Notes: generated from the sequence alone by a model not told the origin. A DNA stretch of 64,000 nucleotides from a candidate division WOR-3 bacterium (GCA_039802605.1 JBDRWW010000002.1:245613-309612), one strand, 5' to 3'; shown: positions 27,847 through 34,006, counted from the stretch's first letter. Numbers and translations are program-made.

Positions 27847-28804
27847 AAAATTTCCCGACCAATTAAGATACGATCCGCAAATTGAAGGGGATTTGTTTGA
27901 ATATACTTATGGTAAGGTGTTTGTTGCGGGTATGGGCGGTTCGGGTGCGGTGGCGGATTTCTTAGTCGATTGGTTGGATAAAGAGATAATACCCGTAAAG
28001 GGGTACAATTTGCCGGGTTTTGCCGTTGAGGGGGATTTGGTAATACTCATAAGTTATTCCGGGAATACAGAGGAAACCGTTTCCGTTTTTGAGGAGGTTT
28101 TAAAGAAGGGTTTGAAGTGTATATGCATATCATCGGGCGGTAAATTGATGGAATTGTCCTTAAACGAGGGATTTCCCTTTTTAAAGGTTCCCGAAGGGTA
28201 TCAACCAAGGGAGGCTTACGGATTTTTAATATCGGCATCCGTAAAGGCTTTGAAATCCGTAGGGTATATAGATGAGAAAGGCTATAAAGAATTCTTGGAA
28301 TCCCGTGAAAGGTTAGGCGGATACATTTCGGAGTTATCCTATGAAAATTCCGAAACATACGAAATTGCATCAAAGATATACAAGAGGCTACCCTTTATAT
28401 ATTCGCAGTTTCAATCCGTAGCGGTTAGGTGGAAAAATCAGATAAACGAAAACGCCAATAACTTTGCACATGTTTCCCTTTTTCCGGAACACAACCACAA
28501 CGAGATTGAGGGGTTTGATTTCCCCGAATTTATTAAGGATAAATCTTGGATAATATTTCTGAGGACGGACTACGATCATCCGAGGGTGAAGCTGAGAATG
28601 GATATAGTTAAGGAGATTTTAAGGGATAATGTTGTGGGGTTCTCGGAGATATGGGCAAAGGGGGAAAGCAAGGTGGAACAACTGCTTTATCTAATTTGGT
28701 ATGGGGATTTTGTCAGTTATTGGCTCGCATTACAAAATTCAACCGACCCCTATAGGATAGATAGGATTAAAACCCTTAAAAACGCATTGGGGGATAACCG
28801 ATAA
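27830..28804 (+). CDS. Bifunctional phosphoglucose/phosphomannose isomerase
   Basis: GMGGSG, SYSGNTEET, QPR, RWKNQINENA, PEHNHNEIEG. Confidence 0.92.
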   Translation: MLENIKKFPDQLRYDPQIEGDLFEYTYGKVFVAGMGGSGAVADFLVDWLDKEIIPVKGYNLPGFAVEGDLVILISYSGNTEETVSVFEEVLKKGLKCICISSGGKLMELSLNEGFPFLKVPEGYQPREAYGFLISASVKALKSVGYIDEKGYKEFLESRERLGGYISELSYENSETYEIASKIYKRLPFIYSQFQSVAVRWKNQINENANNFAHVSLFPEHNHNEIEGFDFPEFIKDKSWIIFLRTDYDHPRVKLRMDIVKEILRDNVVGFSEIWAKGESKVEQLLYLIWYGDFVSYWLALQNSTDPYRIDRIKTLKNALGDNR

Positions 28805-28830
28805 ATTAAACCCCAGTAAAATATCCACTC

Positions 28831-28903
28831 GGGCGGTTAGCTCAGCGGTGAGAGCACCGGTCTTACAAACCGGGGGTCGGAGGTTCGAATCCTCCACCGC
28901 CCA
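28831..28903 (+). tRNA. tRNA-Val (anticodon TAC), CCA not encoded
   Basis: GGGCGGT/ACCGCCC acceptor stem, CCGGT-CT TAC AA-ACCGG anticodon arm, GGTTCGAATCC T-arm. Confidence 0.96.
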
Positions 28904-28904
28904 T

Positions 28905-29186
28905 TTGGTAGGCGATATTGTAATAAAAATTGACGAGAAAGCGGTAGAATTTATAAAAGAAAAGGGTGGAAGGGTTTGGGTTAAAATCGTTTGCATAAGT
29001 GGATGTTGCGGATTGGAGGGGTTTGAACCCCAATTCTCGTTTAATGAGGAAAGTGGGGATTGGGTTGAGTACGATTACGATGGTATAAAGGTCTATCTGC
29101 ATCCGAGCATTTTAAGGTTTAGGAAATTGGTTATAGGGCTTCAAAAGGTTTTTGGGTTTAAGAGTTTAATGGGATATGTCGCTTAG
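28905..29186 (+). CDS. HesB-like CC/Se-motif family small protein
   Basis: IKIDEKAVEFIKEKGG...CISGCCG...DGIKVY; the first in-frame start outside the tRNA is TTG 28905. Confidence 0.65.
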   Translation: MVGDIVIKIDEKAVEFIKEKGGRVWVKIVCISGCCGLEGFEPQFSFNEESGDWVEYDYDGIKVYLHPSILRFRKLVIGLQKVFGFKSLMGYVA

Positions 29187-30365
29187 CCTTTTTGCCACAA
29201 TGCCCACGCATATCATTAAGGGTGCTATGTGGATGTAGTATATAAGGATTGTTGTTGTCAGGGAAGTTATTAAAAAGGATGTAAAGAGCAGTAATGTGAA
29301 AAAGGCAAAATCATCCTTCCTGAGAACCCCTTTTAAAACAATCGCAAAGGAGTATATTAAAAGGGCAAGATATATAGTAAAACCAAAAATGCCCATTTTC
29401 CAAAGCACGGTAATAAAAGAGCTATCAACAAAATTCACGATTTTTCCTTCTATCCACCTCGTCAGCATATCAAATTCCGTTTGCCCAAAAAAGGGACTTA
29501 GATAAAACCTTTGGAAAGCCAAAGAGTAGTCGTAAATCCTTATTTGCGCCGCGGGGTCGTATATGGTTTCGGAAGGGGTAAAAAGCGTTGAGATTCTCAA
29601 AAAAACATATATTAAAAACGCATATCCAAACATCGCGTATCCCATACCCAAACCCAACAAACCGGTTATGGAAAGGGTTCCAAATGCGTTTATGATATAA
29701 CTTTTAATACTTTTACCCTTAAAAGCCGCATATATAAAAATTAAAGCGGTTAAAACGCCTAAGGATATATAGTTTGTCCTATTTCCGAACAAAACAATGC
29801 AAACCAACGAAATAAACGCCGCAAGAAAATACAAAATCTTCCTTATCCCACTTTTTTCCTCGGACATCAAATAAACGGAAATCGCAAATATGAAGGGCGT
29901 ATAGAACACATTCCTATAACCAAACCGAAATGTGGGGTTATACTCTTTGAAAATATCAACTATGATTTCTAAAAGTATAAACACGCTTGAAGCCATAAAA
30001 ATAAAGGGTAAAACTTTGGGAACCTCCCTTTTATCCGCAAATATTCCGAGGAAATAGGAAGCAAACAAAAAAGGTATAAACCTGTGCTCGTCCAATCTTA
30101 GGGTTTTTTCCAAACCAAGGGCGCTTATGATGGAAAGTATATATGTCATCAGGAACGCGATTACCAAATAATTTAAAATGTTATCCCCCTTGGGTAAAGG
30201 TAAAAATGCCAAGTTCCAAAAAATGCCAAAAAATACGATAAATATAATAAAATAAACCACCAAAACCGCTCTATATCCGAAAACCTCGGAGGGATGGGGG
30301 TTTATTAAGGCCAAAAATAATACGGTTAAGGGTATTAAGTTTTCAATTCGTCGTAAGTTCCCCAT
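29166..30365 (-). CDS. O-antigen ligase/polymerase-like membrane protein
   Basis: Multi-TM; GNRT, IR...SPFFG, DSSF..LWKMGIFG; start inferred at ATG 30365. Confidence 0.65.
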   Translation of the reverse strand: MGNLRRIENLIPLTVLFLALINPHPSEVFGYRAVLVVYFIIFIVFFGIFWNLAFLPLPKGDNILNYLVIAFLMTYILSIISALGLEKTLRLDEHRFIPFLFASYFLGIFADKREVPKVLPFIFMASSVFILLEIIVDIFKEYNPTFRFGYRNVFYTPFIFAISVYLMSEEKSGIRKILYFLAAFISLVCIVLFGNRTNYISLGVLTALIFIYAAFKGKSIKSYIINAFGTLSITGLLGLGMGYAMFGYAFLIYVFLRISTLFTPSETIYDPAAQIRIYDYSLAFQRFYLSPFFGQTEFDMLTRWIEGKIVNFVDSSFITVLWKMGIFGFTIYLALLIYSFAIVLKGVLRKDDFAFFTLLLFTSFLITSLTTTILIYYIHIAPLMICVGIVAKRLSDISH

Positions 30366-31921
30366 ACTTCCCTCAAAGCATCGGATATCTCCCCCAGCGT
30401 TGCCCCCTCTTTTGCGCATTCAAAAATATAAGGCATAAGGTTTTCGGAGGTTTTTGCCTTTTGTTTTAAAGTTTTAAGGGCTTCTAAGAAGCCCCTACCC
30501 CTTCTGGATTTATATTCCTTTACCCTTCTCCTCTGCTCCTCTTGAACCTCTTCGGGTAGGGTAAAGATCTCTATTTTTTGCTCCTCAAATTTATCGGATT
30601 TAAAGGCATTTACACCAACCACCACCCTTTCCCCACTTTCCACTTCCATTTGATATTTGTACGCGCTTTCCTCTATTTCCTTTTGGAAAAACCCCATTTT
30701 TACGGCCTCTACTGCTCCCCCAAGGGAATCAATCTTATCCAAATATTCCCAAACCCGGTTTTCTATTTCGTTTGTAAGGCTCTCTATGAAATATGAACCG
30801 GCTAATGGATCCACCGTATCGGGTATATCCGTTTCATATGCTATTATTTGCTGCGTTCTTAGGGCCAACAACACGGATTGTTCCGTTGGTAGAGAAAGGG
30901 CTTCATCGTAGGAATTGGTATGTAGGGACTGGGTTCCCCCGAGAACGGCGGCCAGGGCTTCAATTGTCGTTCTTATGATATTGTTTAAGGGTTCCTGGGC
31001 AACCAAGGATGAACCGGCGGTTTGCGTATGAAACCTTAACATCATACTATTCGGGTTTTTGGCTTTAAAGCGCTCTTTCATTATCTTGTACCAAATCCTC
31101 CTCGCCGCTCTAAACTTTGCAATCTCTTCAAAAAAGTTTATCTGGGCGTTGAAGAAAAAGGAAAGTCTTGGTGCAAACTCATCAACATCCATTCCCCTCT
31201 TTAAAACCTCTTCAACATACGCGATGGCATCCGCAAATGTAAATGCCAATTCCTGTACGGAATTCGCCCCCGCCTCCCTATAATGATACCCCGATATTGA
31301 TATGGAATTCCACTTTGGCATGTGCTTTGCCGCAAATTCTATTATATCACCCACGAGTCTCATCGACGGCTCTACTGGATAAATGTAATTCCCCCTTGCC
31401 GCAAACTCTTTTAGTATATCGTTTTGAACCGTTCCCGATAGGTTTTTTCTGTTTGCACCTTTACCCTCCGCAACGAGAGTGTAAAAGGCCAATATTATAC
31501 CCGCCGTAGCGTTTATGGTCATAGATGTTGAAACCTTTTCCTGATCTATAAACTCAAACACCTCTGCCATATCCTCAATTGTTGAAATTGAAACCCCCGT
31601 CCTCCCTATTTCCCCTTCCGCCATTGGATGGTCGGCGTCGTATCCCAGTTGAGTGGGTAGATCAAAGGCTAAGGAAAGTCCGGTTTGCCCTTGGGATAAG
31701 AGATATTTAAACCTTTCGTTTGTCTGTTTTGCCGTACCAAAACCCGCATACTGCCTCATCGTCCAAACCTTTCCCCTATACATATTGGGATATACCCCCC
31801 TCGTGAAGGGTGGTTGTCCGGGGAGTCCAAGGGCTTCTTTGGGATTAAAATCCTTTAAATCCTCTTCGGTATAAACCTCTTTAAATTTGTATCCAAATGT
31901 GGTTTCAAACTTCTTTTTCAT
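30335..31921 (-). CDS. Methylmalonyl-CoA mutase, large (substrate-binding) subunit
   Basis: PGQPPFTRG, WTMRQYAGFG, AFDLPTQ, QNDILKE, SISGYH, GGTQSLHTN; no DxHxxG B12 domain. Confidence 0.93.
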   Translation of the reverse strand: MKKKFETTFGYKFKEVYTEEDLKDFNPKEALGLPGQPPFTRGVYPNMYRGKVWTMRQYAGFGTAKQTNERFKYLLSQGQTGLSLAFDLPTQLGYDADHPMAEGEIGRTGVSISTIEDMAEVFEFIDQEKVSTSMTINATAGIILAFYTLVAEGKGANRKNLSGTVQNDILKEFAARGNYIYPVEPSMRLVGDIIEFAAKHMPKWNSISISGYHYREAGANSVQELAFTFADAIAYVEEVLKRGMDVDEFAPRLSFFFNAQINFFEEIAKFRAARRIWYKIMKERFKAKNPNSMMLRFHTQTAGSSLVAQEPLNNIIRTTIEALAAVLGGTQSLHTNSYDEALSLPTEQSVLLALRTQQIIAYETDIPDTVDPLAGSYFIESLTNEIENRVWEYLDKIDSLGGAVEAVKMGFFQKEIEESAYKYQMEVESGERVVVGVNAFKSDKFEEQKIEIFTLPEEVQEEQRRRVKEYKSRRGRGFLEALKTLKQKAKTSENLMPYIFECAKEGATLGEISDALREVWGTYDELKT

Positions 31922-32862
31922 AGGAATAGTTGGCTTACAGAGCCACCTTTATGTATCCTCTTTATAGCCTCGGCCAAGAGCTGTGATATGTCAAGGGTTA
32001 TGATTTTGCTGGGTAATTCTTTGTTATGGTTAATGGTATTTGTTATAACCACGCTTTCCGCCGGGCAGTTTGCTAACTTTTCAAGGGCATCGCCGGAGAA
32101 CAATCCGTGGGTTGCCATTATTATAATCCTGTTTGCACCCTCGTTTTTTAAAGCAAATGTGGCGTTTGAAATGGTTGTAGCGGTATCAATTATATCGTCT
32201 ATGAGCAAAACATTTTTCTCCTTAACATCCCCTATAACCCTTACAACTTCGGCAACATTGGGTTTTGGTCTCCTCTTATCAATTAATGCAATGGGTAAAT
32301 TCCAAAGTTTTTCGGCAATGGTCCTTGCCCTCTTTATTCCCCCAACATCCGGAGAAACTATTATCCATTCATCCGGATTTAAACCCAATGGAAACTCGGA
32401 TTGTAAATACCTTTTAAATATTGGGGTGGCATAGAGGTTATCCACGGGTATATCAAAAAAACCCTGGATTTGATCCGCGTGTAAATCAACGGTTAAAACC
32501 CTGTCAAAACCCGAAGATTCAACGAGTTTTGCGATGAGTTTGGCGGATATCGGAACCCTCGGTTTATCCTTTCTATCCTGACGGGCATATCCAAAATACG
32601 GAATCACGGCGGTTATTCGGGCGGCAGATGCCCTCCTCGCCGCATCCGCCAAAAGCAAAAGTTCCAATATGTTTTCCGCCGGTGGATTTGTCGATTGAAT
32701 TATAAAAACATCATCCCCCCTAACGCTTTCCTCAATTTGTACGAAGATTTCCCCATCCGCAAACCTGCTAACCGTATGCTTTGTCGGTTCTATACCCAAC
32801 TCTTCGCATATACCAAGCATTAAATTCCTATTTGAATTACCCCCAAGTATTTTGATTTCCAA
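31918..32862 (-). CDS. prs: Ribose-phosphate pyrophosphokinase
   Basis: FADGE, PYFGYARQDRK, DLHADQIQGFF, VSPDVGG, IDDIIDT; TTG start. Confidence 0.96.
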   Translation of the reverse strand: MEIKILGGNSNRNLMLGICEELGIEPTKHTVSRFADGEIFVQIEESVRGDDVFIIQSTNPPAENILELLLLADAARRASAARITAVIPYFGYARQDRKDKPRVPISAKLIAKLVESSGFDRVLTVDLHADQIQGFFDIPVDNLYATPIFKRYLQSEFPLGLNPDEWIIVSPDVGGIKRARTIAEKLWNLPIALIDKRRPKPNVAEVVRVIGDVKEKNVLLIDDIIDTATTISNATFALKNEGANRIIIMATHGLFSGDALEKLANCPAESVVITNTINHNKELPSKIITLDISQLLAEAIKRIHKGGSVSQLFL

Positions 32863-32863
32863 A

Positions 32864-32950
32864 CGGAGAGGGTGGGATTTGAACCCACGAGGGGCTTACG
32901 CCCCTACGCGATTTCGAATCGCGCCCCTTCGGCCGCTCGGGCACCTCTCC
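32864..32950 (-). tRNA. tRNA-Ser (anticodon CGA), long variable arm, CCA not encoded
   Basis: Reverse complement GGAGAGGTGCCCGAGCGGCCGAAGGGGCGCGATTCGAAATCGCGTAGGGGCGTAAGCCCCTCGTGGGTTCAAATCCCACCCTCTCCG. Confidence 0.96.
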
Positions 32951-33010
32951 GTAAAGCGAATATTTTAAAGTCGTAAATATTAATGCCATCACCCCCTTAA
33001 AATTCCCGTC

Positions 33011-34006
33011 TTGCCGGTATCCGTAATAATTCCCGTTAGAAACGAAAGGGATAACATAATGGGTGTAATTGACAGCGTAAAGGGGGCGCTAAAAAATTCC
33101 CAATTGAATTTTGAAATCGTTATTGTTGATGATAACTCTACGGATGGGACATATGAAATTTTAAAGGGGTTGGAAGACATTAAACTTATCAGGATTACCG
33201 AAAAACCCCAAACGGCCGTTGGGAAAAATTTCGCTTTATGGAAGGGTTTTAAGGTATCAAAAGGGGATGTGTTGCTCTTTTTGGATGCGGATGTTAAACT
33301 TGAACAAAGTTCATTGGAAAGAATACTTCCATTTTTAAGGGATTACGACTTGGTTTCCGTAAGTCCAAGACAAGAAACGGGTTCTCCCTTTGAGGCTTCT
33401 TTACAACCCTTTGTTTTTAAATTTTTATCTTCAATTTATCCCCTTGAAAGGATTAAAGACCCCAAGAGTTCGGTGGCGGCGGCAAACGGACAGTTTATAC
33501 TCATTAAAAGGGGGGTTTATGAGAAGGTTTGCGGGCATAAGGCGGTTATATCGCAAATATTGGAAGATGTGGAATTCGCGAGGAATGTTAAATTATCGGG
33601 TTTTAGGATACTACTTTTAAACGGGAAGGATTACGGGGTAAGGTGTAGGATGTATAAGGGTTTTAAAGATCTGATAAACGGATGGTCAAAAAACCTGTTT
33701 CTTCTATCTTACAAAAAACTCTATTTACCTTTGACCTTTGGATTTATGCACCTGTTTGAAGCCTTGGCAATAGTGTTTTTAACGGTTTATTTTGCATTTG
33801 TGGGTGAATACGGCTTAGCCTCCGGGGTTTTTCTTTTGGGTAATTTGTACACATTTTACGCATTCCGAAACCATTACCAGTTCTATACGGTTATACACTT
33901 ATTGGTGGGCTCATTGTTGTTTATATTTGTCTCTCTGAGGTCATACTATTGGATTAAGTTTAAAGGTGCGGTCTATTGGAAGGGTAGATGGGTAAAAATA
34001 CATTAA
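33011..34006 (+). CDS. GT2 glycosyltransferase (CrtQ/HpnB-like)
   Basis: SVIIPVRNE, DDNSTDGT, GK..AL, FLDAD, ANGQF, ED, RMY, WKGR C-terminus. Confidence 0.85.
   Translation: MPVSVIIPVRNERDNIMGVIDSVKGALKNSQLNFEIVIVDDNSTDGTYEILKGLEDIKLIRITEKPQTAVGKNFALWKGFKVSKGDVLLFLDADVKLEQSSLERILPFLRDYDLVSVSPRQETGSPFEASLQPFVFKFLSSIYPLERIKDPKSSVAAANGQFILIKRGVYEKVCGHKAVISQILEDVEFARNVKLSGFRILLLNGKDYGVRCRMYKGFKDLINGWSKNLFLLSYKKLYLPLTFGFMHLFEALAIVFLTVYFAFVGEYGLASGVFLLGNLYTFYAFRNHYQFYTVIHLLVGSLLFIFVSLRSYYWIKFKGAVYWKGRWVKIH

Follow-up and report, generated by a model that had tools for sequence, protein, structure and literature searches.

In animal mitochondria, transfer RNA (tRNA) genes that do not encode CCA abut coding sequences at distances of 0 to a few nucleotides (nt), and excision of the tRNAs from one genome-length transcript by RNase P and RNase Z (ELAC2) yields the 5' ends of leaderless messenger RNAs (mRNAs) with non-AUG starts. 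This tRNA punctuation was reportedly described by Ojala, Montoya and Attardi in 1981. In the thrU-tyrU-glyT-thrT-tufB operon of Escherichia coli, a downstream protein gene is co-transcribed from a tRNA promoter and keeps a leader with a Shine-Dalgarno (SD) sequence. Here we analyse a 64,000-nt stretch of DNA (the window) from a candidate division WOR-3 bacterium (GCA_039802605.1 JBDRWW010000002.1:245613-309612), in which two tRNA genes are each followed, after a single base, by a TTG codon that opens a protein-coding gene. This flush tRNA-to-start layout is a genome-wide architecture, and its best explanation is that tRNA excision would make a translatable mRNA 5' end for the downstream operon.

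Leaderless mRNAs made directly by promoters are known from Deinococcus-Thermus and Actinobacteria where, in the accessible portions of the reports (PMC4007540, PMC12340547, PMC3160421), the -10 element lies a few nt upstream of many genes and no SD sequence is present. Co-transcription of tRNAs with other RNAs is documented in archaea: the accessible text on Thermococcus kodakarensis describes a tRNA-Lys in the 5' untranslated region of TK0306 and a tRNA-small nucleolar RNA co-transcript (PMC4247193), and that on Haloferax describes tRNA-like elements whose cleavage by RNase P and tRNase Z releases the flanked RNA (PMC4946936). These archaeal and engineered cases resemble the arrangement considered here in that tRNA-processing enzymes free a neighbouring functional RNA from a shared transcript, but they are isolated loci or constructs, neither genome-wide nor flush with a start codon. 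Hoelzle et al. (2012) reportedly describe a Haloferax tRNA-like element that yields a leaderless mRNA for a transposase. Searches of the openly accessible literature yielded no report of a genome-wide or flush tRNA-to-start-codon layout in bacteria, and leaderless mRNAs are not mentioned in the accessible parts of two papers on Caldipriscus and WOR-3 (PMC4791363, PMC12285271).

Both junctions in the window have the same composition. On the plus strand, tRNA-Val(tac) (28831..28903, called by ARAGORN, acceptor stem 7/7 paired) is preceded by a -10 box, TAAAAT (28817..28822, read from the sequence), with 8 nt between box and tRNA +1, and ends at discriminator A28903. A one-base spacer, T28904, which is the first base of a Y-T-T trailer that here overlaps the start codon, separates it from the TTG at 28905 that opens a 93-amino-acid (aa) gene of the CC/Se-motif family (28905..29186; NF041239, 54.8 bits against a cut-off of 40), so that the junction reads A28903-T-TTG(28905) GTA GGC GAT. 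On the minus strand, tRNA-Ser(cga) (32950..32864) lies 11 nt downstream of its own TAAAAT box (32962..32967), ends at discriminator G32864, and is followed by T32863, also read from the sequence, and then by the TTG (32862-32860) of prs (31918..32862), which encodes a ribose-phosphate diphosphokinase of 314 aa; this junction reads G32864-T-TTG(32862) GAA ATC AAA ATA CTT GGG GGT AAT. ARAGORN itself placed tRNA-Ser(cga) at 32863-32951 (-), one base off from the ends fixed by the T-loop and acceptor stem, because C32951 can pair with G32864. With this anchoring both discriminators fall where the original prediction had put them, and its description of the two junctions as N/TTTGG.A (the slash marking the tRNA end), with CCA encoded by neither tRNA and a TTG opening a real gene one base on, is borne out.

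The window lies on contig C2 of an assembly (G000) of 1.65 Mb in 23 contigs, with 41% G+C and an estimated completeness of 90%. To take a census of this layout, tRNA ends were fixed by the T-loop and the 7-bp acceptor stem; the start of an open reading frame (ORF) was taken as the first ATG, GTG or TTG, ORFs of at least 60 aa were considered, and 20000 random positions of the genome served as the null for the tRNA-to-start distance. The first start lies no more than 5 nt from the discriminator in 26 of the 46 tRNAs (22 TTG, 4 ATG), against 5.9% of random positions (binomial p ~2e-20), and no more than 12 nt away in 32 of 46, against 11.5%. Two short ORFs below the 60-aa cut, which we take from their N-termini to be rpmB and rpmG (the corresponding ORFs have 60 aa and 55 aa in the sister-genus genome G007), follow tRNA-Gly(tcc) and tRNA-Trp as CTT-ATG and TTT-ATG, respectively; with these included, the counts rise to 28/46 within 5 nt (22 TTG, 6 ATG) and 34/46 within 12 nt. 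A spacing of +1, as in the window, is the commonest class (11 tRNAs), and in one tRNA the spacing is 0. Another four tRNAs precede a further tRNA in an Ile-Pro-Pro-Pro-Val cluster, the last member of which runs into ahcY at +1. An additional match at 20 nt was dropped as spurious, since it reads across the following tRNA of a cluster. The only unit of the tRNA-leader-SD-ORF kind that we encountered is tuf, which lies 19 nt after tRNA-Gln(ctg) across a spacer with AAAGGAGG, so the organism also uses SD-led initiation. At the flush genes there is no SD sequence, the spacer being 0-5 nt long and the sequence upstream of it being the acceptor strand of the tRNA. None of the 46 trailers begins with CCA.

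The flush starts appear to open real proteins. When the N-termini (first 93-130 residues) of 20 tRNA-adjacent ORFs were compared with NCBIfam, 19 of the 20 matched at E <= 1e-5. For 15 of these 19, the best alignment sets in no later than residue 8; the offset between protein and profile position ranges from -15 to +7, and an N-terminal extension past the profile never exceeds 7 residues among the 19 matched proteins. The protein/profile positions at which alignment begins are 3/3 for murA, 4/2 for a GalE-like protein, 5/4 for purB, 2/1 for asd, 3/1 for Prs, 3/2 for an Rrf2 protein, 3/2 for ahcY, 2/1 for PdxT and 1/3 for a FadD-like protein. In the window, residue 6 of the CC/Se protein aligns with position 2 of its profile, and no other canonical start precedes the CC motif in this ORF. 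In Prs, position 1 of both Pribosyltran_N (Pfam) and TIGR01251 aligns with residue 3; the next in-frame start is codon 15, and starting there would remove the conserved first strand. Thus, the earlier claims that both window starts are genuine and that there is no room for an SD sequence hold, the family profiles aligning from the N-terminus. Essential genes among the flush ORFs include murA, asd, prs, purB, nuoA and nuoH. Integrated mobile DNA behind the tRNAs was ruled out, since the genes are mostly core housekeeping genes.

A box of the form TA[TA]AAT ends 8-16 nt (mostly 9-13 nt) upstream of tRNA +1 in 41 of the 46 tRNAs; in its full form it reads (C)CTTATAATA or CTTTAAAATA, that is, (C)CTTA[T/A]AATA, and is near-identical among tRNAs. 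The box is missing only at four internal members of the tRNA cluster and at tRNA-Gln(ttg). The extended -10 promoters of this genome show no evident -35 element. The same -10 box is carried by the genes for transfer-messenger RNA (tmRNA) and RNase P RNA, and no ORF starts at the 3' end of either. Genome-wide, the box TTA[TA]AATA occurs 726 times; at 174 of these occurrences an ORF of 80 aa or more has its first start within 40 nt, and in 126 of the 174 the hexamer and the start are 6-10 nt apart. The box precedes the starts of at least 189 ordinary ORFs by 5-11 nt, most often by 8 nt (ATG 140, TTG 27, GTG 22), so the organism appears to make mainly leaderless mRNAs. The 16S 3'-end pattern GGATCACCTCC had no match in the assembly, in which the rRNA operon is probably not assembled, hence there is no anti-SD sequence to read. 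In the tRNA-led units, the tRNA occupies the place of the start codon relative to the box. At prs and the CC/Se gene the whole tRNA lies between the -10 box and the start, so neither has the layout of a promoter-made leaderless mRNA. The motif TAnnnT is absent from the last 25 nt of all 46 tRNAs, and the tRNA-adjacent ORFs therefore lack a promoter at the distance usual in this genome.

The trailers follow a strict rule. The first trailer base is a pyrimidine in all 46 tRNAs (T in 28, C in 18), the second is T in 44 and the third is T in 42, and the Y-T-T trailer is present with or without a downstream ORF. Reading from the tRNA end, the start layouts are TTG (spacing 0), YTTG (spacing 1), YTTTG and TTTTTG; ATG never comes nearer than in YTT-ATG. 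Consequently, the flush starts are biased toward TTG, because the trailers begin with Y-T-T and only a UUG that overlaps the U residues would sit closest to the new 5' end. TTG opens 22 of the 28 tRNA-adjacent ORFs and 27 of the 189 promoter-adjacent ORFs (Fisher p ~1e-11). Bacillus RNase Z is reportedly favoured by a U after the discriminator and blocked by CCA (Pellegrini et al. 2003). In the WOR-3 genome, the constancy of the trailer points to Y-U-U as, presumably, a determinant of tRNA 3' processing, and selection would keep the start nearest the new 5' end, which only UUG permits. UUG would then be the rule at processed ends and account for about 14% of starts at promoter-made ends.

The layout recurs in relatives, in five of which about 30 tRNAs each were sampled; the genomes are related, and the counts are not independent. 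Within the family, whose two genera are represented by 12 genomes, all 12 carry tRNA-Ser(cga)-TTG-prs; one genus places the TTG at +1, the other at +2. Across these 12 prs loci the TTG is invariant while the changes in codons 2-5 are synonymous, and a TAAAAT box is conserved upstream of the tRNA. All 7 of 7 genomes of a sister family in the order have prs behind tRNA-Ala(tgc) (TTG at 3-9 nt in five, ATG at 31 nt in two), and in a third family (G024) it lies 26 nt behind tRNA-Val(tac); no tRNA precedes prs in G019 and G020. In each of three families, then, prs stands behind a different tRNA: Ser(cga), Ala(tgc) or Val(tac). The distribution of the prs units suggests either repeated capture or a retained tRNA-led prs unit with tRNA replacement. 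The CC/Se gene was found in 5 of the 21 genomes searched, all within the genus. In four of these five it follows tRNA-Val(tac) with TTG at +1, and it appears pinned to the tRNA end, because the TTG stays at +1 although the N-terminus is four residues shorter in two of them. In the fifth (G003, contig C16), the CC/Se gene starts with ATG, has a CTTAAAATA box 7 nt upstream and is not adjacent to a tRNA. Between G003 and its congeners, the CC/Se gene thus shows a natural exchange of one mode of 5'-end formation for the other.

More widely, at least 8 tRNA-gene pairs are common to the source genome and G007, with small shifts of spacing and codon, as in purB, where TTG directly at the tRNA end corresponds to TTTTTTT-ATG in G007. 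A start lies within 5 nt of the discriminator in 11 of 30 tRNAs of G007 (sister genus; 16/30 within 12 nt) and in 11 of 29 tRNAs of G017 (sister family; often as T-ATG; 13/29 within 12 nt). In three other families of the class, the corresponding counts are 1/35 within 5 nt and 0/35 within 4 nt (G020), 0/31 within 5 nt and 6/31 within 12 nt (G019), and 0/32 within 5 nt and 13/32 within 12 nt (G024). In G019, an ORF starts 10-16 nt downstream of 16 of 31 tRNAs across an A/U-rich spacer without an SD sequence; in G024, the distance to an ORF start is 7-12 nt, over a U-rich spacer, at 13 of 32 tRNAs, and CCA is encoded by 12 of 32. Very short spacers thus seem to be a trait of the class, and the flush form a trait of the order. 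The expectation that the spacing seen in the window would recur at most other tRNAs and in related genomes is therefore confirmed.

The explanation that we favour, with a probability of about 0.68, is that the tRNA gene leads, as first cistron, a transcription unit with a strong -10 promoter of its own, and that excision of the tRNA makes the mRNA's 5' end. Such a unit would run from the promoter through a leader of about 1-6 nt, the tRNA and 0-5 nt to the start codon of the protein operon. Maturation of the tRNA 3' end, which every functional tRNA must undergo because all lack an encoded CCA and most are the sole gene for their anticodon, would cut the transcript at the discriminator or no more than one or two bases away from it. 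The cut would leave the downstream RNA with the start codon at its 5' end or 1-4 nt in, and ribosomes that already translate mostly leaderless mRNAs would initiate on this processed end. An apparent lack of the 5'-monophosphate-sensing RNases (E/G, J) might let processed RNAs persist, and according to Giliberti et al. (2012), a 5' phosphate reportedly suffices for leaderless translation in E. coli. From the gene arrangement we infer co-transcription, the exact cleavage site, the nuclease and the translation of the processed RNA.

The stretch was found in 20 sequencing runs, among them two RNA libraries, represented by small shares and by assembled contigs only; RNA contigs on 28600-33100 give perfect-match pieces at 28988-29217, 29479-29645, 31051-31197 and 32013-32339, none of which bridges or ends at a junction. 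These pieces fall inside the CC/Se ORF, a membrane-protein ORF, a mutase gene and prs, and the libraries may include DNA carry-over; these RNA contigs weigh neither for nor against the explanation. Several findings tell against it. Flush spacing is not universal in the class, ORF starts in G020, G019 and G024 tending to lie 9-16 nt downstream. Leaderless translation is not supported by UUG in the systems examined to date, E. coli and Haloferax as summarised in PMC4007540, and TTG makes up 0.3% of the leaderless genes of Deinococcus deserti; another report gives UUG as 3% of leaderless starts in P. acnes (PMC3848588). Finally, the expected nuclease is missing from the list of matches. All negatives on enzymes in the source genome are drawn from a metagenome-assembled genome (MAG) that is 90% complete: there, RNase Z (TIGR02651) has no match at E <= 0.001, and none of RNase E/G, RNase J and RNase PH was found. 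Among 41 genomes of the class, none has an RNase Z over the cut-off (E <= 0.01), and partial matches, reaching 130 bits at most, are confined to other families. The original prediction, which had proposed tRNA punctuation with RNase Z as the maturing enzyme, thus stands in outline on comparative sequence evidence, and its choice of nuclease does not.

Scanning all Lactamase_B_2 proteins of the source genome likewise yielded no rnz, and weak RNase Z-like metallo-beta-lactamase (MBL) proteins of G003, G006 and G036 have no homologue in it by tblastn. RNase P RNA is present (211.6 bits). The candidates for the 3' nuclease are RNase Y (635 bits; C4:112817-114328), a 434-aa beta-CASP MBL RNase (C8:20125-21429), most like aCPSF1 and 'Cas14' models and below their cut-offs, and a 220-aa MBL hydrolase of the PRK00685/UPF0173 type (C11:31147-31809); the other MBL proteins of this genome are GloB-like and YtnP-like. 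An MBL-type enzyme would rank above RNase Y, because starts at a spacing of 0-1 nt demand a precise, structure-guided cut. As a whole, the set of RNases in this genome looks unusual. Genes like cca, which the original prediction had proposed to look for, are present: two class II tRNA nucleotidyltransferase homologues with a PolyA_pol domain, one of 385 aa (C2:23817-24974) and one of 456 aa that also has an HD domain (C1:44181-45551), both over the Pfam cut-off and below the NCBIfam equivalog cut-offs for CCA enzymes. Aquifex has a split pair of CC-adding and A-adding enzymes, and the two homologues may be such a pair. The gene content thus resembles the Bacillus subtilis-type RNase Z pathway in its CCA-less tRNAs and CCA-adding homologues and differs from it in that rnz was not found.

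Two alternatives would do away with processed mRNA ends altogether. The flush TTGs might not be true starts, with translation beginning further downstream and the open frame that reaches back to the tRNA being incidental: TTG arises readily where a T-rich trailer precedes G, our ORF rule picks the first ATG, GTG or TTG, and some promoter-adjacent 'TTG' calls are clearly wrong, such as TTATAATAtTTGGCTATGATG, where an ATG lies at the usual distance. This is hardly credible, given the profile alignments that begin at residues 1-8 in 15 of 19 proteins with extensions of at most 7 residues, the conserved first strand that Prs would lose with a start at codon 15, the prs TTG that is invariant in 12 genomes while adjoining codons change synonymously, and the CC/Se ORF with no other canonical start before its CC motif. 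Somewhat less remote, and still quite improbable, is that the mRNAs are primary transcripts, the polymerase initiating within or at the end of the tRNA gene, with no part for tRNA processing. A -10 box 5-11 nt before the start is, after all, the normal mode of this genome, and the T-loop sequence TTCRAAT weakly resembles a -10 hexamer. However, the 5-11 nt upstream of the flush starts are G+C-rich acceptor strand, TAnnnT is lacking from the last 25 nt in 46 of 46 tRNAs, and a box in the T-loop would sit 13 nt from the discriminator and be without the conserved A at position 2, whereas the true promoters of this genome are near-perfect copies of (C)CTTATAATA.

The other two alternatives accept the tRNA-led transcript and differ from the excision model in what happens to it. 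A general endonuclease such as RNase Y might cut imprecisely in the U-rich trailer, with trimming by a 3' exonuclease, and the adjacency would then be mainly compaction behind strong promoters; flush starts (0-2 nt) would often be damaged, and expression would come from a minority of RNA cut upstream or from read-through RNA that stays uncut. Apart from RNase Y, no canonical endonuclease for mRNAs and tRNA trailers was found, RNase Z, E/G and J being missing from the matches, and the U/A-rich spacers of 9-16 nt in other families of the class would go well with a cut of lower precision. We consider this scheme unlikely: 11 starts lie at +1 and one at 0, the genes include essential ones, all 12 of the 12 prs loci retain the flush TTG, and in the CC/Se gene the TTG is pinned at +1 even though the length of the N-terminus changes. 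A defined cut is favoured because the start is pinned to the tRNA end. Very improbable in our view is that the precursor stays uncleaved and is partly translated, the tRNA body acting as a 5' handle that places the start in the manner of tmRNA or of viral tRNA-like structures; we know of no precedent for this. The evidence for it is circumstantial, namely the very short and tight spacing (0-4 nt) and a non-AUG bias that classical leaderless initiation, according to PMC4007540, does not tolerate. Against such a handle, a plain promoter and an ATG suffice for an ORF of the CC/Se family in G003, the spacing at orthologous junctions varies between 0 and 12 nt, a range more in keeping with a free 5' end than with a fixed geometry, and 30 different tRNA bodies would have to serve.

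Animal mitochondrial tRNA punctuation is the nearest known system to the WOR-3 layout, sharing with it tRNA genes that abut ORFs, the lack of an encoded CCA, non-AUG starts and, if 5' ends are indeed made by tRNA excision, mRNAs without leaders. The WOR-3 layout differs from that of animal mitochondria in several respects. Instead of one genome-length transcript, there is an own promoter at 41 of the 46 tRNAs. In mitochondria the tRNAs also mark mRNA 3' ends, and stop codons are completed by polyadenylation, whereas the WOR-3 tRNAs mark only the 5' side of operons; the ORFs have complete stop codons, and the operons end in convergent genes, not in tRNAs. Of the mitochondrial pair of excision enzymes, RNase P is represented in the source genome by its RNA, and no RNase Z/ELAC2 homologue was found in the assembly. 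The setting, moreover, is not an organelle but a free-living bacterium of about 1.65 Mb that also has SD-led genes such as tuf. Compared with the leaderless mRNAs that promoters make, of which this genome has at least 189 candidates, the tRNA-adjacent 5' ends would come from processing and carry a monophosphate or hydroxyl instead of a triphosphate, and the start is TTG in 22 of 28 cases where promoter-made leaderless mRNAs have a 5' AUG, with GUG tolerated. The tRNA-Gln(ctg)-tuf unit is of the same kind as the E. coli tufB operon; by contrast, 28 of the 46 tRNAs leave no more than 5 nt and no SD sequence. What would be new here is the combination, at genome scale and in a free-living bacterium, of tRNA punctuation with leaderless translation from UUG starts.

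A far more specific version of this scheme can be put forward tentatively, and it is on balance doubtful in its entirety. It holds that in Caldipriscus tRNA 3' maturation is obligatory for the mRNAs of about 35 operons (murA, asd, purB, prs, nuoA, nuoH, ahcY, rpmB and rpmG included), that an endonuclease other than RNase Z measures the tRNA body and cuts between N73 and Y74 of the invariant Y-U-U, that initiation at the resulting non-triphosphate (U)UUG end is efficient, and that this punctuation evolved independently of mitochondria, with looser forms of 9-16 nt across the class. If the RNAs freed by tRNA excision are indeed the translated messages, tRNA punctuation would not be peculiar to shrunken organelle genomes and could arise in any free-living bacterium with translation that is already leaderless. 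The lineage would offer a natural test of whether a processed, non-triphosphate 5' end, and a UUG start, can initiate leaderless translation, and would point to a novel tRNA 3' endonuclease where RNase Z, E/G and J were not found. The supply of tRNAs would be coupled to the expression of core biosynthetic and respiratory genes via the same strong promoters. Gene callers that expect a ribosome-binding site or forbid genes that touch tRNAs will misplace WOR-3 starts, and probably those of other leaderless-rich lineages.

The closest labelled relative of the source genome is the MAG Candidatus Caldipriscus sp. T1.2, with 88% identity in Prs; other matches in the Prs search are mostly from distant phyla. 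By these sequence comparisons, the genome belongs to the genus Candidatus Caldipriscus of the WOR-3/'Pyropristinus' hot-spring lineage, as that lineage is set out in the accessible parts of PMC4791363 and PMC12285271. The source organism is an uncultured, free-living hot-spring bacterium.

In the window, prs is followed on the minus strand by a gene for the large subunit of methylmalonyl-CoA mutase (30335..31921; PF01642, 741 bits), whose ATG overlaps the prs stop by 4 nt, which places it in the same operon. The original prediction had named a prs-mutase-ligase operon: the mutase is confirmed, and the 'ligase' label is not. The ORF so labelled, third on the prs strand at 29166..30419 (-), encodes a polytopic membrane protein and has no Pfam match at E <= 1e-4; in its longest form it shares 85 nt with the mutase gene, which leaves the start uncertain. 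Its end runs into that of the convergent CC/Se ORF, with an overlap of 21 nt. RNA-contig pieces resembling tRNA-Ser, from other organisms, map to 32864-32897.

Two minor observations concern tRNA genes in relatives. On contig C46 of G007, three tRNA-Pro(tgg)-like copies lie close together, and an 82-aa ORF begins at spacing 0 after one of them; its N-terminus, LAKWYVYVLRS...YIGYT, is one that we take to be GIY-YIG-like. At G020:C2:225836-225909, ARAGORN calls a tRNA with the anticodon TTA ('tRNA-Stop'), which is the weakest RF00005 match of that genome (34.3 bits); a miscall, a pseudogene and a tRNA of suppressor type are the candidate readings.

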